Shown here piece after piece: positions 1,926-54,688 of a stretch of 64,000 bases of DNA (the stretch's first letter is position 1; the number at the start of each line of letters is the position of its first letter). The translations under genes and the position numbers were made by a program. Below the pieces are notes generated by a model, which did not search any database, was not told the origin of the DNA, and worked only from the letters and a program-made list of their open reading frames with translations. Source of the DNA: a virus; IMG/VR virus record IMGVR_UViG_3300037851_001164, positions 3,904-67,903 of that record, one strand, 5' to 3'.

Positions 1926-2869
1926 ACGTCACCTCGCATTGCTTGCCATTTTGGAGCTTCCGCCACACTCGGCCAGGGCATCGCGCCGCGCCCGGGCTGC
2001 GGCACGAGCTGTTGGCTCGGGCGGTCGAAGTACAGCCGCACCCGCCCCTCCCACTCGCCGTGGCGCTGCTTGACCACCAGCAGCTGCGCGTCGGGCTCCT
2101 GCGGGTCGCTCGCCTCACCGGCCTCGCACCGGCGCTCCTTGGCCTTGTTGCGGTGCACGATGAGCACGTTGTCAGCGAGATCCGTGATCTCGCCCGCGCC
2201 CTTGATGTCGTACTTGTCGGGCACGTGCTCCTCGCGCTCGCGCTTGCGGATGTGATGCACCAGGTGCAGGTGGATGCCGTGGGTCTTCGCCGCCCAGCAC
2301 AGCCGGTCGACGAACGTCTTCTGCGCCGGGTAGTCGTCGGGGGCCATGCCGCATTTGACCAGGCTGTCGATGACCACGTGGCGGATGCGCAGCTCCCTGG
2401 CCGCGTAGCAGACCATGCCGAGGATGCGCTCGGGCGCGACCGTGTCGGTCTGGTCGTAGATCCACAGCCGCTCGTCGGTCCACGCGAGCCAGCGCTGGAT
2501 GAACGCCAGGCTCGGCACCTCGCCTCCCGAGGCCTGGCGCAGCATCCTGGCGAGCGTCGCGGCTGGCGGCATCTCGAGCGATGCGATCAGCACGCTGGTC
2601 GCGGGCAGCAGCCAGAGCATCGTCTGGCCCAGCACCAGGGACTTGCCGTGGCCGTTGACCCCGGCCCAGATGGTGGTCTCCCCGGGCCGCAGGCGCAGCC
2701 TCGCCTGCGTCTCGCTCCACGGCAGTGCGTCGCCGTGCTGGGACACCCCGAGCAGCAGCCGGTCGCGGACCGCGTCGTACCAGTCCGAGGCCGGGCGGAT
2801 GAATTGCGACTCCTGAGCCCCGACGAAAGCCAGGAAATCGACGTCTTCGGGCACGGTACGCATGCTCAC
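1922..2869 (-). CDS. DnaB/T7 gp4-like replicative helicase domain
   Basis: Walker A GVNGHGKS, SLEM, Walker B VVIDSL, LVHHIRK, IKGAGEITDLADNV, KQRHG. Confidence 0.9.
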   Translation of the reverse strand: MSMRTVPEDVDFLAFVGAQESQFIRPASDWYDAVRDRLLLGVSQHGDALPWSETQARLRLRPGETTIWAGVNGHGKSLVLGQTMLWLLPATSVLIASLEMPPAATLARMLRQASGGEVPSLAFIQRWLAWTDERLWIYDQTDTVAPERILGMVCYAARELRIRHVVIDSLVKCGMAPDDYPAQKTFVDRLCWAAKTHGIHLHLVHHIRKREREEHVPDKYDIKGAGEITDLADNVLIVHRNKAKERRCEAGEASDPQEPDAQLLVVKQRHGEWEGRVRLYFDRPSQQLVPQPGRGAMPWPSVAEAPKWQAMRGDV

Positions 2870-4107
2870 CAGCGCTCCCAGTTGGCGTAGTCGTTACGCT
2901 CGGCCTTCGTGTCGCGGTCGTGCTTGTGCTTCCAGGTGCGCACCGCCGCCTTCCAGTCCCGCATCGGGCTCTTGCCCACCATCCAGCCCTTGGTGGCGTA
3001 GAAGTCCACGAACTCGCTGCCGTCGAGGCGAAAGCCGATGCTGCGCGCGTACTCCTCGACCTCGTAGGCGGTGGGGCGCTTCATCGACCTGGCACCGTTG
3101 ACGCCAGGCTCCGCGGCAGCCGCGGTCCCCGGGGTCGGCGCGTCCCCTGGCCGCTGGCGCGGCGTGCGCGGCAGCTCCGCGGGGCGCGCCCTGGCCTGGG
3201 CCAGGTGGTCGTCGATGAGCGCCAGCATCTCGGCCTCGCTGGGCGCCGGGCCCGCCGGTGCTCCGGCCGGCTGGCGGAGCGGTGCGGACGGACCCTGGGG
3301 AGCCCGCGGCAGCGGCTCTTCGGGGTTGCCTTCTTGCCCCGAAGGGGCGTCACCTACCTCCGGCGAGGGCGCAGCCCGAGACGCTACGGCCTCGCCCCCG
3401 GTCACGGTCCCGGTGGGTAGGGGGGGGCTATAGGGGGGGTTCTTGGATCTCCCTCTCCCTTTCTTAGCCGTGACAGGCCCGTGACAGGTGCGTGACTCCT
3501 CACAGCTTGTCACGCGTGACAGGTCGGTGACCGGCGTGTGACCTGGGCGCCCGGGATCGTCACTAGTCACCGGCGCCTCGCCGTGACCAGTCGCACCATG
3601 ACGCTCCCCAACCAGCTCTCTCAGTCTCGAGGTCGGCGTATCCCAGGACGGCACCTGCCCGCAGGCGCGCAGCACCTCGAACATGTGCCTGCGCTCGGCG
3701 CGCTCACGCTCCTTGCGCGCATTGGCAGACACCTGGGCGTCCTTGTAGCGCAGCCGCTCTTCCCACGCCTGCTCCACGATCTCCGCCACGGTGCGGTGGT
3801 ACAGCCGCCCGTCCCGGCACTTGATCCAGCCGCGCAGCGCCATCGCGCACACCTTGCGCCACTTCTTCAGGTCGCGGCCATACCCGGCCAACGCGGCCAG
3901 CACGCGCTCATCGTCCGGCAGGCTCCCGGCTGGCACCTGATGGAACGCGCGGCCCCACAGCACCAGTCCGGCGCGAAACTCGGCGTCGGTGGCCAGCGCG
4001 AAGAACTCGGAGTTGAACAGCCGGCCGAGATCTAGCTTCATCCACTGATAGCCTCTGAGGTCCACCTCGGCGGACACCAGCGGCTCGGGCAGCTCGGCCT
4101 GGCTCAT
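2866..4107 (-). CDS. Replication initiator (DUF1376/YdaU-like N-terminus, replisome-organiser C-terminus)
   Basis: WMKLDLGRL..SEF, VPAGSLPDDERVLA..AG, DGRLYH; C-terminal FVDFYATKGWMVGKSPMRDWKAAVRTW. Confidence 0.8.
   Translation of the reverse strand: MSQAELPEPLVSAEVDLRGYQWMKLDLGRLFNSEFFALATDAEFRAGLVLWGRAFHQVPAGSLPDDERVLAALAGYGRDLKKWRKVCAMALRGWIKCRDGRLYHRTVAEIVEQAWEERLRYKDAQVSANARKERERAERRHMFEVLRACGQVPSWDTPTSRLRELVGERHGATGHGEAPVTSDDPGRPGHTPVTDLSRVTSCEESRTCHGPVTAKKGRGRSKNPPYSPPLPTGTVTGGEAVASRAAPSPEVGDAPSGQEGNPEEPLPRAPQGPSAPLRQPAGAPAGPAPSEAEMLALIDDHLAQARARPAELPRTPRQRPGDAPTPGTAAAAEPGVNGARSMKRPTAYEVEEYARSIGFRLDGSEFVDFYATKGWMVGKSPMRDWKAAVRTWKHKHDRDTKAERNDYANWERW
3401..3602. repeat. GTGAC/GTCAC iteron cluster; candidate replication origin inside the initiator gene
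   Basis: GTGAC at 3470, 3481, 3492, 3516, 3527, 3538, 3583; GTCAC at 3401, 3509, 3559, 3566; two triplets at 11-bp period. Confidence 0.65.
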
Positions 4108-5071: not shown

Positions 5072-5270
5072 CGCACCCGCGCGCCGTCCAGGGCCGTGCC
5101 AGATACCAGCGCTGCAGGGCCCAGGATGCCTGCTCGGCCCGCACCCGCGCGGAGCGCTCGCGGCGCTCGGCGCGCAGGTCCTCGGAGCACCCGCAACGCG
5201 CAGTCCACACCGGGAGCCGGGTCGAGTCCCAGCGGCGGCGGGCTACACGCCGGGCCGTCGCCGGGGTCAT
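5055..5270 (-). CDS. Hypothetical protein
   Basis: ATG at 5270 overlaps the VRR-NUC stop codon. Confidence 0.4.
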   Translation of the reverse strand: MTPATARRVARRRWDSTRLPVWTARCGCSEDLRAERRERSARVRAEQASWALQRWYLARPWTARGCGDGPR

Positions 5271-5641
5271 GTCAGGTACTCCACCAGCACCGCCCGGCCC
5301 GCCTCCCAGCCGCGGCACACCTCGACGCGAAAGCCCTCGGCGCGCAGGCTCTCGATGGTCTCGCGCTGCTCGACCTCGACCCGTCCGCCCTGGCGGCGCT
5401 TCATCTCGATGTACAGCCCGTGATAGCCGGCCCGGGCGTGGGGCAGGAACAGGTCCGGGATGCCGGGGCGCACGCCCTGGCGCTGCAGTGCCCGGGCGGT
5501 GCCGATGTGGCGATGCCCGCCGTTGGGGATGGCGTGCAGGAGCTTCAGCGCCGGGTACGCGGCTTGCGCGAGCCGGGCCCACGCCACCAGCGCCTCCTGC
5601 TCGGCGGCCTCCAGCGCTTGCCCGCTCGATGGCCTGGGCAC
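5267..5641 (-). CDS. VRR-NUC domain nuclease
   Basis: HAIPNGGHR, GVRPGIPDL, LYIEMK, EQRETIESLRAEGFRVEVC. Confidence 0.88.
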   Translation of the reverse strand: MPRPSSGQALEAAEQEALVAWARLAQAAYPALKLLHAIPNGGHRHIGTARALQRQGVRPGIPDLFLPHARAGYHGLYIEMKRRQGGRVEVEQRETIESLRAEGFRVEVCRGWEAGRAVLVEYLT

Positions 5642-5646
5642 GGCCG

Positions 5647-5850
5647 CTACCGTCCCGCGCCGTCCCGGGCGGAGACCGTCGCGGGGCTCGCGCCGTCATG
5701 GCGCGTTGCCGCATGCTCGGCGACATGGGCGCGGATCAGCCGGCGCACGTACTCTGACAGGGGCCGGTCGTCCTCGCGGGCGAGCCGCTTCAGCGCCGTG
5801 TAGAGCTCGGCCGGGATCCAGACCCGCAGATCGTGATCGCAGGCCTGCAC
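5647..5850 (-). CDS. Ribbon-helix-helix (Arc/CII-like) DNA-binding protein
   Basis: LRVWIPAELYTALKRLAREDDRPLSEYVRRLI; start codon uncertain (GTG 5850). Confidence 0.6.
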   Translation of the reverse strand: MQACDHDLRVWIPAELYTALKRLAREDDRPLSEYVRRLIRAHVAEHAATRHDGASPATVSARDGAGR

Positions 5851-5883
5851 CTGCAGGCGCAGGCACCAACCGGAGGACCGTGC

Positions 5884-6174
5884 ATGACGCAGAAGACCTG
5901 GCCGCCCCGCCGCCGCGGGGTCAGCATCCAGATCGCCGCCGAGCCCGCCATCCTGGACTGCCCGGTGGTGGGCCACCGGGTCGCCCTGGTTATCGGCTAC
6001 CTCGCCTACCAGGCGCCGGCGACACGCGAGACGAGCGAGATGCCCGCCTGCTCGCACCTGGCCGAGTGCGGGCTCGCCAGCGCGGACACCGGCCGCCTCG
6101 ACCGCGAGCGGGCCGGGCGCGCCGGCTGCCCGCTGGCCGCGAGCCTGGGGGTCTGGCGGCCACCGGCGCGCTGA
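5884..6174 (+). CDS. Hypothetical Cys/His-containing protein, antisense to the cro operon
   Basis: GGAGG Shine-Dalgarno 7 nt before ATG 5884; high GC3 codons. Confidence 0.6.
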   Translation: MTQKTWPPRRRGVSIQIAAEPAILDCPVVGHRVALVIGYLAYQAPATRETSEMPACSHLAECGLASADTGRLDRERAGRAGCPLAASLGVWRPPAR

Positions 6175-6266
6175 GACGCTCATGCGGACTCCCCCCTTGG
6201 CCAGAAGCGACCCGGGATGCAGCCACACCCGGGGACCCGCTCGCCGCCCCCCGGAGCAGGCGCGGA

Positions 6267-6351
6267 TGGCCGACAGAGGAGGACTCGAACCTCCGACCCG
6301 CGGCCCCGGCGCCAGCTGGGCGGCAGGTCCCGGCGACCTGCCGGTCTGTCG
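6267..6351 (-). ncRNA. tRNA-like cloverleaf RNA with aberrant D arm and encoded CCA
   Basis: CGACAGA/TCTGTCG acceptor stem + G + CCA; T arm GGAGG-TTCGAGT-CCTCC; 8-9 bp hairpin in place of the D arm; 7-nt loop CTGGCGC. Confidence 0.6.
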
Positions 6352-6361
6352 GCAACAAGGA

Positions 6362-6616
6362 TCACGCAGCGGCCTCCCTGGCGCCAGCCGGCGCGGGCCC
6401 TGGGCCGTTGGCCGCGCCGTGCGCCGTCGGGCTGTCCTGGGCAGGCGGCATCCATTCGGCGGGAACCACGTCGGGACGCAGCAGCGCCAGCGTCTGCCGC
6501 CTGGCCCTGGGCACCCCATCATGCTGCCACTGCGACACCGCCTGCTTGGTGACCCCAAGAAGGCGCGCCACACAGGAGACCCCCCCGAGGCGCTCGATCA
6601 CGTTCGCGTCCGTCAT
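6362..6616 (-). CDS. cro: Cro-like repressor
   Basis: MTDANVIERLGGVSCVARLLGVTKQAVSQW HTH; divergent from cI. Confidence 0.85.
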   Translation of the reverse strand: MTDANVIERLGGVSCVARLLGVTKQAVSQWQHDGVPRARRQTLALLRPDVVPAEWMPPAQDSPTAHGAANGPGPAPAGAREAAA

Positions 6617-6623
6617 GGCGCTA

Positions 6624-6683
6624 GTCCAGCACACCGAACCCTCTCAGTCAAGCAGACTCACCCGTTTGTCCAGTAGGCTTGAC
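6624..6683. promoter_or_regulatory. OR: three 16-bp operators (6624-6639, 6647-6662, 6668-6683) with PR/PRM elements
   Basis: GTCCAGcacaCCGAAC, GTCAAGcagaCTCACC, GTCCAGtaggCTTGAC; TTGACT on the minus strand at 6651-6646; TAGGCT at 6674-6679. Confidence 0.7.
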
Positions 6684-6686
6684 GGC

Positions 6687-7397
6687 ATGACTATGGGGGA
6701 CCGGATCCGCGAGAGGCGCCTGCGCGCCAGGCTCACGCAGCTCGCCCTCGCGACGCGCCTCGGCGTGACCAAGTCGGCGGTGTCCCAGTGGGAGAGCGGG
6801 GACATCAAGACGCTCAAGGGCCCAGCGCTTGTCGCCCTGTGCCGGGAGCTCGGGGTCAGTGAGTCGTACATTCTGGACGGATCCGGGCCCGCAGCCAGAA
6901 CGGCACCGCCACCGGCGGGCCCGCAGCGGCGTGGCCCGGACAGCGCCACGCCGGCCACTGCCGCGCGCGACACCAGGCGGATCCCGGTGATCAGCTACAT
7001 CCAGGCCGGTGAGCCGCGCGAGGTGGTGGACGACTACGCGGCCGGCGACGGATTCGAGACCCTGGGCGTGGACCCCGATCTGGCCGCCAGGCTGGGCCCG
7101 CACGCGTTCGGGCTGCGGGTGGAGGGAGAGAGCATGCTCCCTGAGTTCCGGCCCGGGGACTACGTGATCGTGGATCCCGACGCACCTGTGCGCCCTGGCG
7201 ACATGGTGGTCGCGAAGCTGGAGCGCGATAACGCCGCCACCCTCAAGAAGTACCGCTCGCGGGGCGTAGACGCCGAGGACCAGCCGGTGTTCGAGCTGGT
7301 GCCCCTGAACGACGACTACCCGACCGTCACCGTGAGCGGGGCCAACCCCGGGCGGCTCGTGGGGCCCGTGGTGGAGCACCGCAGAAGGCTCAGGTAA
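6687..7397 (+). CDS. cI: CI-like repressor (HTH plus S24 autoprotease)
   Basis: GDRIRERRLRARLTQLALA..LGVTKSAVSQWESG; Ala-Gly site IQAG; LRVEGESM (Ser) and ATLKK (Lys). Confidence 0.95.
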   Translation: MTMGDRIRERRLRARLTQLALATRLGVTKSAVSQWESGDIKTLKGPALVALCRELGVSESYILDGSGPAARTAPPPAGPQRRGPDSATPATAARDTRRIPVISYIQAGEPREVVDDYAAGDGFETLGVDPDLAARLGPHAFGLRVEGESMLPEFRPGDYVIVDPDAPVRPGDMVVAKLERDNAATLKKYRSRGVDAEDQPVFELVPLNDDYPTVTVSGANPGRLVGPVVEHRRRLR

Positions 7398-14524: not shown

Positions 14525-14721
14525 GCCCAGAAGAGATCGAGGTCCTGACCGGCTACCGCCGCTGGAGCGCTCAACGGCGCTGGCTGTCCGAGCATGGGTA
14601 CCGACACGACGTGGCCGGTTCTGGCCGCCCGGTCCTGCTGCGGGCCGAGGTCGAGCGGCACCTGGTGGGCAGCGCTCGCCCTGCTGCCCGCCGCGATCCG
14701 CGGCTAGACTTGCTGACCTGA
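14515..14721 (+). CDS. DUF4224-type excisionase-like protein
   Basis: MFLSPEEIEVLTGYRRWSAQRRWL..GRPVLLR immediately upstream of the integrase. Confidence 0.75.
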   Translation: MFLSPEEIEVLTGYRRWSAQRRWLSEHGYRHDVAGSGRPVLLRAEVERHLVGSARPAARRDPRLDLLT

Positions 14722-15686
14722 TGGGCCGCCACCGCCAGCACAATCGCCATCTGCCGCCACGGGTGTTCCTGCGGCACGGGGCCTATTACCACGTCGTGCA
14801 CGGGGTTTGGACCCGTCTCTCCGACCGGCTCGATCTAGCCCTGGCCAGGTGGGCGGAGATCGAGGGTCCGCCCTCCCGAGGCTCGACCGTGGGAGCTGCC
14901 ATCGACCGCTACCAGCTGGAGGCCTTGCCCCGGCTTGCCGAGCGCACCCGCCAGGACTACGTGCTGAGCCTCGGGCGCCTGCGAACGGTGTTCGGGGAGG
15001 TCGAGCTGACCGACGTGCGCCCGATGCACGTCGCCCAATACCTCGACCGACGCTCTGCCAAGGTCTCGGCGAACCGCGACGTAGCCGTGCTCTCTAGCGT
15101 CTTCGCCATGGCCATGCGCTGGGGCTGGTGCGATGCCAACCCTTGCCGCGGGGTGCGACGTAACCCCGAGCGGGCCCGCGAGCGCTACCTGTCCGACACC
15201 GAGCTGCAGGCGTTACGTGATGCGGCCGACGCGCAGTGGCAGTGCATCATCGACCTGGCCTACCTGACCGCCCTGCGGCGCGGCGACCTGATGGCCCTGC
15301 GCCTGGGGGATATCGAGCCAGACGGTCTTGCCGTTACCCACCGCAAGACGGGGGCACGCCGGCTCTACACCATGACGGCCGAGCTGAAGCTCGTCCTGGA
15401 CCGGATCCGGAGGCTGCGCCGCCGGGTGGGCACCCTGCTGCTCTTCGCCGCTCGTAACGGCCAGCCGTACAGCGCCGGCGGCTGGGAGAGCGCCTGGCGG
15501 CGCCTGCGGACCCGCGCGGGCATTACCGACGCCCACTTCCACGATCTGCGTGCCAAGGCCCTGACCGACGCCAAGCGCGTCGGCGGGCTCGACTACGCCC
15601 AGGCTCTGGGTGGGCACGAGCGGCGGGACACGACCGAGGGCTACGTGCGGGCGCGTGAGACGGTGCCGGTGCGTCCGCTACGCTGA
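14721..15686 (+). CDS. int: Tyrosine recombinase (phage integrase)
   Basis: TALRRGD (R), HRKTG (K), HFHDLRAK (HxxR), LGGHE..TTEGY (H, Y). Confidence 0.95.
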   Translation: MGRHRQHNRHLPPRVFLRHGAYYHVVHGVWTRLSDRLDLALARWAEIEGPPSRGSTVGAAIDRYQLEALPRLAERTRQDYVLSLGRLRTVFGEVELTDVRPMHVAQYLDRRSAKVSANRDVAVLSSVFAMAMRWGWCDANPCRGVRRNPERARERYLSDTELQALRDAADAQWQCIIDLAYLTALRRGDLMALRLGDIEPDGLAVTHRKTGARRLYTMTAELKLVLDRIRRLRRRVGTLLLFAARNGQPYSAGGWESAWRRLRTRAGITDAHFHDLRAKALTDAKRVGGLDYAQALGGHERRDTTEGYVRARETVPVRPLR

Positions 15687-15688
15687 AT

Positions 15689-15949
<261 letters not shown>

Positions 15950-16206
15950 GTCAACCGTGAGCGCACGTAGACCGGGGCGGGTGACGTTGTAGGCGGCATC
16001 CTACGCACTGCGCGCCATTCGCCTACAGACCAGCCGGTCGTCGCAGCCTACTCTCTCCCATGCGCCCGAGCGGCTACGATGCCTGCGATCTGACCGAGGC
16101 CAGGAGGGGGAGCCTGGCCGGAACTGTCGGGAGAGGGCGCGGCTCCGGTCCGATTGCTGCCCTGCGTGGCGGCACCGCCCCGGCCCCGATGGCCGGAGCG
16201 CGACCC

Positions 16207-52013: not shown

Positions 52014-53999
52014 TCAGGTAACGTAGCGCCCCGGCGGGGTCATGCGCCGCAGGGCCTCGCCCTCGCTCATTTCCGCCCCCTCGTGGTCGAAGCGGAACAG
52101 GTCGTGGTAGGGCAGCCAGCGGCCCACGCCCACGTGGATCTCCGGCCAGTGATCCGCGGACTGGCGCCGCACCAGCGCCCCGTCCAGGTCGAAGTAGCGC
52201 ACGGCCTTGCTCCCGGCGGCAGCCGCCGCCCGCTTTGCACCCTTGCTCTCGCCCATCCCGCCCAGCAGGCGCAGGAACCGCGCCCCGAACGCCTTGGCGA
52301 TGGCCTGGCTCCATGCCTGGGCGTAGATTTCGCGGGCCCGGGCGTTGGCGGCGTCATAGACGGCACGTTCCTCCCGGGTCATGCGCGACTCGTCGCGCCC
52401 CTCGGTCGCCAGCCTGGCGGCGATGCTGCGCGTCTCCTCGTAGAGCTTGTGCGCCACCTCCTTGGCCTTGAGCATGGTCTTGACGTGCAGCTGCAGCTCG
52501 CCGATATGCCCGTTGGGCAGGCGCACGTTCATGAGCACGTCGCGGTAGCCCACGTCCACCGGCTTGACGAAACGGTCCTTGGGCCGCCTGGCAAGCTGCA
52601 GCCCCGCCTGCTTGAGGCGCGCGAGCAGGGGCTTGAGCTCCTTGTAGGTGTCCACCGCCAGGGTGGCACGCACCACGTCGGTGAGCTTCGACCAGTCGCC
52701 CTGGTAGTCGGCCTCGACCTTCTCCTTCGCCCGCTTCTGGCTCTTCAGCGGGGCCAGCAGCAGCACCCCACCCGGTCGGTCCAGGTCCTCGATGGCCGCG
52801 TTGAACTCCTCGAGCGATGTCGGCGAGTAAGTGCGGTAACCCAGCCGATCGGCAATGCCGTTGCCCTCATCCAGCCAGTCACGATAGTGGCGCAACGCCT
52901 CCTCGGCCTGACGGTAGAGCCCGTCGGGGTCCGCCACCGGCTGAGACGCATCCTCTGGCAGCGCGCGCTCACGCTCGTCGAAGAGCGGCTGCACGTCGCC
53001 CGGGCTCTTGGCCCGCTGCGCCTCCTCGTGCAGCTTGCGCACCTCCTCGTGCCAGCGGTCCTGACTGATCTGGCCCGACCCAAGCTGCTGGGTCAGATCC
53101 GCGTAGCGCATGCCCCGCTTCCACTTTTCAGTGCCCGCCAGGCGCCCCAGAACACGCCCGTCGGTGGCCTGGTGGTAGCCGTGGGTGACCGCGTCTTCGA
53201 GCGCCTGGTGCGGCGTGTCGAACATGTCGTGGCCGGAGAAGCCGTGCTCGTCGTAGCGCTGGATGCGGTGCTTGCCGGGCTGGGAGGCGTCCGGGAGGAT
53301 GCGCGCGTAGCGCCCGCCTTCCTTGTGCTCCAGCTCCAGCCCCACCGGATCGCCGCCGTGGCCGTCCAGTAGCTCGTTCACGCGCTCGTCGTGGGCGTGG
53401 GCCTGGGCCAGCAGGTCCGCGAGATACGCTGGCCGCTCCCCGCCCTTGCGATCCACGCGCTCGGCCAGCTCCTGGGCGTGCTTGAGCCGCGCGGTCTGGT
53501 GCGGCTGCGGCCCCTCGGCCCGGGCCACCACGTCCCGGTGCAGCACCCGGTGCTCGCGCCCCTTGGCGTCGCGCACCGTGACGCCGTCCTTGCCGGCGGC
53601 CACCACCTGGCCCTTGCCAGTGCCGTCCTTGCCGCGGAACTTCACCACGTCGCCCTTGCCGGCGGCGGGCCTGCCCGGGGCCCCGCCAGGCTTGGCCCCG
53701 CGTCCGCGCTTGCCCTCTGCGGCATCCTCGGCGGTGCGCATCCAGCGCTTGGTGTGATGTCCGGCACGGTCGGTGAGATCGCGCAGCGCCAGCCCCGGCC
53801 GGTCCTTCACGGGGCCGGCCTTCACCAGCAGCAACGGCCTGGCCAGCGCGGCGCGCACGGCCGCGTCCAGGCCCTCGTCCGCGCCCTCCGGGGCTGTGCC
53901 CGGTCCTGGCCCGGGCGCGGCAGGGCCATACGGCGGCGCCACGTCGTCCGGCGGCGCCTCCAAAGAGAACCACTCCTCGCGCAGCGGATAGGTGTGCAT
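52014..53999 (-). CDS. Polyvalent protein with a RelA/SpoT-like nucleotidyltransferase domain
   Basis: PLKSQKRAKEKV, DVVRAT, KDRF....GYRDVLMNV, GELQLH; N-terminal KOW-like segment. Confidence 0.8.
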   Translation of the reverse strand: MHTYPLREEWFSLEAPPDDVAPPYGPAAPGPGPGTAPEGADEGLDAAVRAALARPLLLVKAGPVKDRPGLALRDLTDRAGHHTKRWMRTAEDAAEGKRGRGAKPGGAPGRPAAGKGDVVKFRGKDGTGKGQVVAAGKDGVTVRDAKGREHRVLHRDVVARAEGPQPHQTARLKHAQELAERVDRKGGERPAYLADLLAQAHAHDERVNELLDGHGGDPVGLELEHKEGGRYARILPDASQPGKHRIQRYDEHGFSGHDMFDTPHQALEDAVTHGYHQATDGRVLGRLAGTEKWKRGMRYADLTQQLGSGQISQDRWHEEVRKLHEEAQRAKSPGDVQPLFDERERALPEDASQPVADPDGLYRQAEEALRHYRDWLDEGNGIADRLGYRTYSPTSLEEFNAAIEDLDRPGGVLLLAPLKSQKRAKEKVEADYQGDWSKLTDVVRATLAVDTYKELKPLLARLKQAGLQLARRPKDRFVKPVDVGYRDVLMNVRLPNGHIGELQLHVKTMLKAKEVAHKLYEETRSIAARLATEGRDESRMTREERAVYDAANARAREIYAQAWSQAIAKAFGARFLRLLGGMGESKGAKRAAAAAGSKAVRYFDLDGALVRRQSADHWPEIHVGVGRWLPYHDLFRFDHEGAEMSEGEALRRMTPPGRYVT

Positions 54000-54688
54000 C
54001 AGATGAGCCCTCGCTCGGCGAACGACACGACATCGAGATTGCGGTCCCCGCCCACGATCAGGTGATCGAGCACGCGCACGTCCACAAAGGCGAGCGAGTC
54101 CTTGAGCCGCCTGGTCAGCTGCTCGTCGGCGCGGCTGGGCGATGCCACCCCGGAGGGATGGTTGTGCACCAGGATCACGGCGGCGGCGTTACGCGCCATC
54201 GCCTCCCGGACCACCTCGCGCGGGTGCACGCTCGCCCCGTCGATGGTCCCGCGGAACATCTCCTGGAAGTCGATCAGGCGATGGCGGTTGTCGAGCCACA
54301 GGCAGGCGAACATCTCGTGTGGGTAGGCCCCGAGCTTCAGCCGCACCAGATCGCGCGCGGCGCCGGGATTCCCCAACTCGTCGCCCGGCACCCGCAGCCT
54401 GGCTTGTAGCTCATTTATCGCTGCCGCGATCAGCGCATCGCCCGTGAGCGCGGGGGCTGGCGCTACATCCGGCGTAGCCACGACCACATCCTGCGTAGCG
54501 GGCTCCTGGGACGGTGCGCGGCGCGGCCGCCTTGGCACCGGCGCCTCGGCTGGCCCGCCGAACAGATCCGGCGTCACCGGATCCTCGGCCTCGTGGCGGC
54601 TATCGACGTAGGGTCGCACCAGCACCGGCCGGCCGGAGGGCAGGCGCCGGGTATGGCCCCGCACCCGGGTCTTCAACAACAGCATCAT
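53999..54688 (-). CDS. radC: RadC-like JAB/MPN domain protein
   Basis: [32 protein letters not shown]...[13 protein letters not shown]. Confidence 0.9.

Follow-up and report, generated by a model that had tools for sequence, protein, structure and literature searches.

The immunity region examined here belongs to a viral contig of 70,376 bp with a G+C content of 71.7%, of which a stretch of 64,000 nt was analysed (the window, to which all coordinates refer unless another locus is named). The local map was established by codon-position GC analysis and family searches, and the resulting features are listed in Table 1. It comprises a repressor gene of the cI type, a cro-like gene and an early operon on the minus strand that continues beyond the gene of the VRR-NUC nuclease with DUF1376 and DnaB-like replication genes. 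Between cro and the gene encoding a ribbon-helix-helix (RHH) protein lies an element of 85 nt with the outline of a tRNA, located, like cro, on the minus strand (6351..6267). It starts 10 nt past the end of cro: the TGA stop codon (6364-6362) is followed by eight nucleotides (tccttgtt), then by GC and then by C1 of the element at position 6351. This confirms the initial annotation, which had placed a tRNA-shaped RNA directly downstream of cro. A consensus scan of positions 5600-7000 revealed no sigma-70-type promoter, and no tRNA-related gene is encoded near the element.

Two of the neighbouring genes display features of their own. The convergent open reading frame P0002 specifies a protein with four cysteine residues and without a Pfam match, for which the AlphaFold model reached a pLDDT of 48.7, and no homologue of it was detected among 5.8 billion proteins by a word-based search or among 1.84 billion representatives by a full HMMER search. 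P0002 is located upstream of cI on the same strand, and a transcript of the lambda P_RE type could carry it. The Cro protein comprises 84 amino acids, compared with 60-65 in its closest relatives. The approximately 30 additional residues at the C-terminus are of low complexity (Pro/Ala/Gly), and near position 6400 the GC signal of the codon positions becomes weak. This tail (6362-6450, minus strand) may have originated by reading on into former non-coding sequence; CGGCTGGCGCCAGGG occurs in this region and nearly repeats CAGCTGGCGCCGGGG of the element.

Table 1. Features of the immunity region and of the tRNA-like element (coordinates in the window)
Feature	Position	Strand	Basis
cI-like repressor gene, HTH and S24 peptidase, divergent from cro	6687..7397	plus	
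cro-like gene, 84 aa, P22_Cro	6362..6616	minus	GC3 frame; PF14549, E 2.8e-10
tRNA-like element, with two further 5' bases by which the acceptor helix reaches 9 bp	6267..6353	minus	sequence; ARAGORN overlap; tRNA-Sec model alignment
Acceptor stem, 5' strand CGACAGA	6345..6351	minus	all seven bases in Watson-Crick pairs with 6271-6277
Arm 2 of the minimum-energy fold (alternative to the 9-bp hairpin): CCGGC-AGGUC-GCCGG, 5-nt loop containing GG, stem of 5 bp	6330..6344	minus	
9-bp GC hairpin CGGCAGGTC-GCCGG-GACCTGCCG, the 'D-arm replacement' of the initial annotation	6321..6343	minus	prefix folds
Arm 3 of the minimum-energy fold (likewise alternative): irregular hairpin of 35 nt with a UGGC tetraloop, 7+4+2 bp	6295..6329	minus	
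Canonical T arm GGAGG-TTCGAGT-CCTCC	6278..6294	minus	read from the sequence
Acceptor stem, 3' strand TCTGTCG (6277-6271), with discriminator G and encoded CCA (G-CCA, 6270-6267)	6267..6277	minus	
92-nt spacer between element and convergent ORF; CCCGGG/CCCGGG hairpin, no T run	6175..6266		
P0002, convergent ORFan, 96 aa	5884..6174	plus	GGAGGA Shine-Dalgarno sequence, GC3 > 0.9
RHH gene, next minus-strand gene of the early operon	5647..5850	minus	
VRR-NUC nuclease gene	5641..5267	minus	

The segmented string given for the element in the initial annotation is the exact reverse complement of window positions 6267-6351, as established both by a programmatic match and by reading. Its anatomy was likewise recovered: the acceptor stem consists of seven Watson-Crick pairs, the T arm is of canonical form and the 3' end carries G-CCA. 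The long GC hairpin described in place of the D arm is present as well, with an actual length of 9 bp (6343-6335 paired with 6329-6321, loop GCCGG), and the anticodon stem that had been proposed contains the A.G mismatch ascribed to it. Additionally, G6353 and C6352 are able to pair with G6270 and C6269, by which the acceptor helix would grow to 9 bp. Three T-arm-like motifs occur on both strands of the whole 70-kb genome, namely the true attP, one weak match in a coding region and the element. The element alone is accompanied by a perfect 7-bp partner at a spacing typical of tRNAs (empirical P = 0.011), and it is also the only one of the three in which GCCA follows the T arm in combination with such a partner. 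The element is beyond chance. An independent metagenome contig of 59 kb (L007) carries the identical sequence, with 100% identity over 10,255 nt, and the element is therefore not an assembly artefact.

The recurrence of part of the element within the attachment site of the phage, which had been pointed out before, was verified: the 12-mer GGTCGGAGGTTC is found again at 15795-15806 on the minus strand, within the genuine attP. This attP (15700-15950, minus strand) contains a tRNA-Pro(GGG) 3' end of 45 nt, reaching from the anticodon loop as far as CCA, and its core is identical to tRNA-Pro(GGG) genes in many Gammaproteobacteria, in Thermaceae and in other groups, spanning many phyla. The same core is carried by two phages with a related cI (L023 and L024). 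The flanks of the attP are AT-rich and contain CCTGTCCAATAT repeats in both orientations that are probably arm-type integrase sites, and the adjoining 321-aa open reading frame (14721-15686, plus strand) is likely to encode the integrase.

These 12 shared nucleotides, together with the fact that the stretch from variable loop to CCA is the part typically carried by tRNA-targeting attP sites, raise the question of whether the element acts at the level of DNA, either as a pseudo- or secondary attachment site or, with its 9-bp inverted repeat around a 5-bp spacer, as a palindromic site for a binding protein. We regard such a role as very unlikely. The element is separated by 9.5 kb from integrase and attP, no CCTGTCCAATAT arm repeats occur nearby, and its T loop reads TTCGAGT as opposed to TTCAAAT in the attP core. 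The palindrome does not resemble the operator region between cI and cro, and a relic of an att site would leave the 5' acceptor strand unexplained. Moreover, a tRNA with the acceptor and T loop of the element was found neither in the 185,579 species genomes nor in the metagenome or viral contigs, and no integrase is located beside it.

With respect to the features that define a canonical elongator tRNA (RF00005, clan CL00001), the element divides into two parts. The 7-bp acceptor stem, the discriminator, the CCA end, the 5-bp T stem with the pair G53-C61 and the T loop of the form TTCRANY are all present. The remaining features are missing: position 8 is C in place of U8, and the D arm, expected as a stem of 3-4 bp with a loop of 7-11 nt containing A14 and G18G19, has given way to either the 9-bp hairpin with the loop GCCGG or a 5-bp stem with the loop AGGUC. 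An anticodon arm with a 5-bp stem, a 7-nt loop, U33 and a purine at position 37 is also lacking; in the canonical frame set by the variable loop GGGTC, two of the five anticodon stem pairs fail and position 33 is occupied by G, as read from the sequence. The score against the RF00005 covariance model is below that of a member of the family. No Rfam family at all was matched at its gathering threshold, and the best match within the tRNA clan at E <= 10 was that to tRNA-Sec, with 18.5 bits compared with a threshold of 47. ARAGORN detected no tmRNA in the window or in the genome.

The initial annotation had expected a pseudogene call or no call from tRNA detection software, and this expectation failed for ARAGORN, which reports a tRNA-Ala(GGC) at 6343..6267. 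The call depends on a poor alternative register in which the 3' acceptor strand is matched to a second 7-mer, CGGCAGG, at the cost of two G.U pairs, and the D arm is reduced to two pairs. The probability of a G.U-tolerant 7-mer match within 45 positions was estimated at about 0.18; since such a match is expected roughly once in five cases, the tRNA-Ala(GGC) call was treated as an artefact. If adopted, this label would inflate phage tRNA counts and any inference on codon usage that is drawn from them.

It is most improbable that the element is a functional decoding tRNA, be it the tRNA-Ala(GGC), for which the ARAGORN register even yields a G3.U70 pair, or an unusual type such as tRNA-Sec or an allo-tRNA, to which the end-to-end alignment with the tRNA-Sec model (RF01852) and its 9-bp acceptor might point, although that alignment scores far below the threshold. 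The acceptor branch of the element is 7/5, or 9/5 and thus 14 bp when the flanking bases are counted; tRNA-Sec and allo-tRNAs have branches of 13 bp (8/5, 9/4) or 12 bp (8/4, 9/3), and a length of 14 bp agrees neither with the 12-bp (7/5, 8/4, 9/3) nor with the 13-bp (Sec) branch according to PMC5389517. Neither a long variable arm nor a UCA anticodon is present, and position 73 is G where an alanine tRNA needs A73. Accordingly, the view that the RNA is something other than a decoding tRNA was upheld: no match to the Rfam tRNA clan exceeds the threshold, neither a canonical D arm nor U8 is present, and the best predicted folds contain no anticodon loop. The element is real, well-formed and tRNA-derived, but it is no tRNA.

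Structure prediction yielded two competing cloverleaves that differ by about 3 kcal/mol and have the acceptor stem and the T arm in common. The minimum-energy fold (-51.3 kcal/mol) accounts for 75% of the ensemble and remains the centroid when 211 nt of context are included. It represents a four-way junction without unpaired junction bases, in which a 5-bp arm and a 35-nt irregular arm are found between the two common helices. The pairs of the former (arm 2 in Table 1) have probabilities of 0.98-0.99 in the equilibrium ensemble, and the latter (arm 3) occupies the place of the anticodon arm and the variable loop. The alternative fold, with -48.1 kcal/mol, retains the 9-bp hairpin of the initial annotation in combination with an 8-bp bulged arm that ends in a hexaloop. 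The 9-bp hairpin and the arms of the minimum-energy fold are mutually exclusive. According to prefix folds, this hairpin would form first during transcription (-18.2 kcal/mol at 31 nt), and the barrier from the state containing it to the minimum-energy fold was estimated at about 15.4 kcal/mol. A 7-nt anticodon loop is absent from both best folds; the anticodon arm proposed earlier (CCCAG/CUGGCGC/CGGGG) appears only in a fold at -36.4 kcal/mol, which is 15 kcal/mol above the minimum. GC-rich hairpins thus replace the D and anticodon arms, and no anticodon loop is left.

The stability of these folds was compared with that of suitable controls. When the acceptor stem and the T arm were kept fixed, the 50-nt interior folded more stably than dinucleotide-shuffled versions of itself (z = -2.0, p = 0.04), and it likewise surpassed random genomic 50-mers (p = 0.003), the latter partly on account of its G+C content of 84%. 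The 211-nt context as a whole gave z = +0.5, and a high G+C content alone makes strong folds likely.

Similarity to real tRNAs is restricted to the 3' 37 nt of the element, which display 84% identity to a mycobacteriophage tRNA-Trp; in the region of the T arm, exact identity over 22-24 nt exists to ordinary phage genes for tRNA-Asn and tRNA-Lys and to a plasmid gene for tRNA-Arg. At the same time, the 5' strand, which is outside this region of similarity, pairs perfectly with the 3' acceptor strand. A descent from tRNA-Pro(GGG) arm by arm was considered and rejected, as the 5' half scored 27.0 in comparison with a shuffle mean of 26.6.

Searches for homologues were carried out in several collections. 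A 551-nt query gave no blastn match among 50,697 phage records, and an 87-nt query detected only generic tRNA T arms in them. A pattern that fixed the acceptor stem and the T loop matched nothing in viral contigs, metagenome contigs and 185,579 species genomes, and hairpin patterns, both exact and degenerate, had no match in viral contigs. The pattern of the T-arm junction recovered normal tRNA-Asn and tRNA-Lys genes only, and the search of plasmids returned one chance match in a coding region and one normal tRNA-Arg. A covariance model built for the element (R1) was applied to 185 phage loci (860 kb) and recovered nothing beyond the element and its reverse complement, and a script-based scan of 186 phage loci yielded six ordinary tRNAs and no other aberrant element of tRNA shape. 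The element is a singleton in the collections searched, the sole other copy being the 100% identical one on L007. Because homologues are absent, the lack of covariation cannot be counted against it. The reverse complement (6269-6355, plus strand) reaches 39 bits against the element's own model, a measure of how palindromic the element is; a plus-strand transcript of this interval would form a mirror cloverleaf.

The same slot was then compared in related phages. The closest relatives of cI are 52-62% identical and those of Cro at most 61%, and the respective loci lack the element. In three of the cI loci (L018, L019 and L020) the order is cI, cro, a spacer of 172-202 nt and a small gene that is homologous to the RHH gene of the present phage (38-41% identity, E 6e-15 and 2e-14); the cro gene of L020 is homologous to the cro gene described here. 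The three spacers are GC-rich and end in a hairpin with a T run, as detected by a scanner in L020 and by eye in L018 and L019, and no tRNA-like features were found in them. An alignment of the sequence downstream of cro with these spacers was discarded, since it disclosed only a common GC richness. In the present phage the slot between cro and the RHH gene measures about 510 nt and holds the element together with P0002 on the opposite strand. This comparison indicates that the element and P0002 are specific to this lineage. The statement that the element lies where lambda has nutR/tR1 is in agreement with this synteny, as relatives with the order cI-cro-RHH carry a terminator-like spacer at that place. 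Three further loci (L008-L010), in which cro is 12 nt away from a 96-aa open reading frame, were rejected as evidence of an insertion, since that reading frame is not homologous to P0002.

Further observations were made in the loci compared. In L018, cro is adjoined by a tandem pair of cI-like HTH/S24 repressor genes that encode 232 and 234 aa (2501-4042 of that locus). Relatives of the VRR-NUC protein reach no more than 61% identity, and ordinary tRNAs are the only ones in their loci. In six of these (L220, L222, L275, L277, L287 and L303) a single ordinary tRNA gene, for Lys-TTT, Glu-TTC or Ile-TAT, is located approximately 600-1000 nt downstream of VRR-NUC, so that an isolated tRNA gene within an early operon is no rarity across this broad group. 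On L306, a phage tRNA cluster for Gln, Asn and Phe includes a stretch (positions 1053-1121 of that locus) that ARAGORN labels 'tRNA-???' with a two-base anticodon (gc), a result suggestive of an irregular anticodon loop in a further viral contig.

These data could be explained by an inert relic, that is, by a decayed or captured phage tRNA gene that arrived together with P0002 in a moron-type insertion and has lost its function, with stems that persist owing to its youth or because a sequence with 80% GC pairs easily. This explanation is a real possibility, albeit a somewhat doubtful one; the initial annotation, which suggested a processing signal, a regulatory RNA or a decoy, did not include it, yet it is the strongest rival of the processing function proposed below. 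It agrees with the restriction of the tRNA likeness to the 3' 37 nt and a 5' half no closer to tRNA-Pro than shuffled sequences, with the occurrence of the element as a singleton beside an ORFan in a slot in which relatives do without it, and with an interior structure only modestly better than that of shuffles. Furthermore, tRNA fragments abound in mobile elements, and software frequently mislabels them as tRNAs (PMC9897764). Uniform decay, however, would hardly be expected to leave a perfect acceptor of 7 bp, or 9 bp, with three A-U pairs against a background of 72-84% GC, nor a flawless T arm and CCA end. A pure 3' fragment would not bring along a complementary 5' strand (P ~0.011), and no donor tRNA with this acceptor was found among the 185,579 species genomes scanned.

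What has been retained is a 7-bp acceptor stacked on a 5-bp T stem (12 bp in total), the T loop and R73-CCA. RNase P, the enzymes that trim 3' ends and the CCA enzyme read exactly the acceptor/T-stem stack, the T loop and RCCA, and bacterial RNase P recognises these determinants rather than the anticodon. An intact acceptor/T minihelix combined with D and anticodon regions that have no similarity to tRNA agrees better with selection on the determinants of processing than with uniform decay. The most likely function of the element would accordingly be that of a cut site for RNase P and 3' trimming in the early transcript, to which we assign a probability of roughly 0.4. A cloverleaf with acceptor and T helices dominates the predicted ensemble, also within 211 nt of context. 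Bacterial RNase P also processes tRNA-like substrates other than tRNAs, including the C4 RNA of phages P1 and P7, and tRNA-like structures at the 3' ends of transcripts are RNase P substrates in other systems, according to PMC4919922.

According to this proposal, the element would be a tRNA-derived gene for a non-decoding RNA of tRNA shape. From the lack of a visible promoter of its own and its start 10 nt after the cro stop codon we infer that it is transcribed as part of the rightward early transcript of the P_R type. RNase P would cut this transcript at C6351 or 1-2 nt before it, and trimming from the 3' side would halt at the encoded CCA. Cleavage would sever cro from the delayed-early genes, namely those for the RHH protein, VRR-NUC and replication, and would release a stable RNA of about 85 nt. 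In this manner, RNA processing could uncouple cro from downstream expression at a position where relatives appear to use termination. Pairing of C-1 and G-2 with G73 and C74 would hide the first C of CCA and may weaken or shift the cleavage by RNase P. The occurrence as a singleton and the ambiguity of the predicted structure, with two cloverleaves and an estimated barrier of about 15 kcal/mol between them, speak against processing. The proposal in its full extent, in which a tRNA mimic devoid of an anticodon separates cro from the delayed-early genes by processing instead of tR1 termination and in which the freed RNA may act as well, is put forward as a tentative and rather unlikely whole.

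The RNA released with a CCA end might possibly serve as an antisense RNA to a transcript of the P_RE type or as bait for enzymes that target acceptor ends. A primary role as a trans- or cis-acting regulatory RNA of immunity, comparable to C4 of P1/P7 or the CI RNA of P4, or as a stable antisense RNA aimed at plus-strand transcripts which, in the manner of lambda P_RE, would cross P0002 and anti-cro in the direction of cI, is considered unlikely. The location in the immunity region and a tRNA-like acceptor with CCA as in C4 (PMC4919922) are consistent with it, as is the order of P0002, the complement of the element, anti-cro and cI on the plus strand, by which a read-through RNA would be perfectly complementary; that read-through transcript, however, is hypothetical. 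With the Rfam model of C4, a match was lacking even when E values of up to 10 were allowed. Outside the element, the longest stretches of the genome complementary to it amount to 13-14 nt, are GC-rich and are close to the level of chance, and none of them lies close to a ribosome-binding site in the immunity region.

A main function as a decoy or sponge appears decidedly improbable. Such an RNA would occupy enzymes whose substrate is the acceptor end or the elbow of tRNAs (defence nucleases, transferases, CCA-adding or repair enzymes) and would shield host tRNAs early in infection, for which the element would be suited insofar as it has kept the acceptor/T minihelix and CCA while losing the decoding parts and would be expressed along with the first early gene. 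On the other hand, an RNA without an anticodon loop cannot mimic the target of an anticodon nuclease, no partner gene for an RNA ligase, a kinase or a CCA enzyme is located nearby, the protein encoded at 52014-54188 has no Pfam match, and the element is present in a single copy and as a singleton.

A comparison with known systems places the element between several classes of RNA. It resembles phage tRNAs and miscalled tRNA fragments (PMC9897764) in being located in a phage genome and in being called by a tRNA finder, and its T arm, 3' acceptor strand and CCA are identical or nearly identical to those of phage and bacterial tRNAs for Asn, Lys, Arg, Trp and Pro. Unlike phage tRNAs, it lacks a D arm, U8 and a credible anticodon loop and fails the covariance models; unlike fragments left by integration, it has a perfect 5' acceptor strand and is situated neither at the boundary of an element nor beside an integrase. 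The tRNA-like domain of tmRNA also combines an acceptor, a T arm and CCA with another helix in place of the anticodon arm, but the element contains no reading frame for a tag, has no G3.U70 in its Watson-Crick register and measures only 85 nt.

With regard to phage regulation, the element has the same map position as lambda nutR/tR1, between cro and the next early gene. It differs from this site in its derivation from a tRNA and in that no T run follows any of its helices; no intrinsic terminator (GC-rich hairpin with T run) was detected in 5600-7000, and no motif resembling boxA or boxB was seen by eye at the element. The C4 RNA of P1/P7 (RF01695) is likewise a small structured RNA of an immunity region with a tRNA-like acceptor end. 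Hartmann et al. reportedly identified this antisense RNA of P1 and P7 as a substrate of RNase P in 1995. According to PMC4919922, C4 is matured from a longer transcript by RNase P. In contrast to C4, the element has a canonical T arm, which C4 does not have; it shows no match to RF01695 at E <= 10 in 5800-6700, and no complementary targets of it were found in the operon, its matches of 13-14 nt being scattered in late genes.

The location of the element inside the cI/cro switch is unusual; in other respects it is a variant of known pseudo-tRNA genes and tRNA-like substrates of RNase P, and as a single case from one uncultured phage its significance is limited. If it is processed as proposed, it would represent a lambda-type switch that employs the tRNA maturation enzymes of the host at the boundary between cro and the delayed-early genes. 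Parallels would then be MALAT1 with mascRNA and the t-elements of plant mitochondria, in which, as PMC4919922 describes them, a non-decoding tRNA shape is located directly 3' of a functional RNA, as is the case here, and cleavage by RNase P sets the 3' end of the upstream RNA and frees a small tRNA-like RNA. Those systems are eukaryotic or organellar, whereas the element belongs to the early operon of a bacteriophage, its CCA is encoded in the DNA and its processing is a proposal. On this proposal, punctuation of mRNA by tRNA-like structures, otherwise known mainly from organelles and from eukaryotic long non-coding RNAs, would extend to bacteria, and the element would be the counterpart of MALAT1/mascRNA and the mitochondrial t-elements in a bacterial virus, set inside its switch between lysis and lysogeny.
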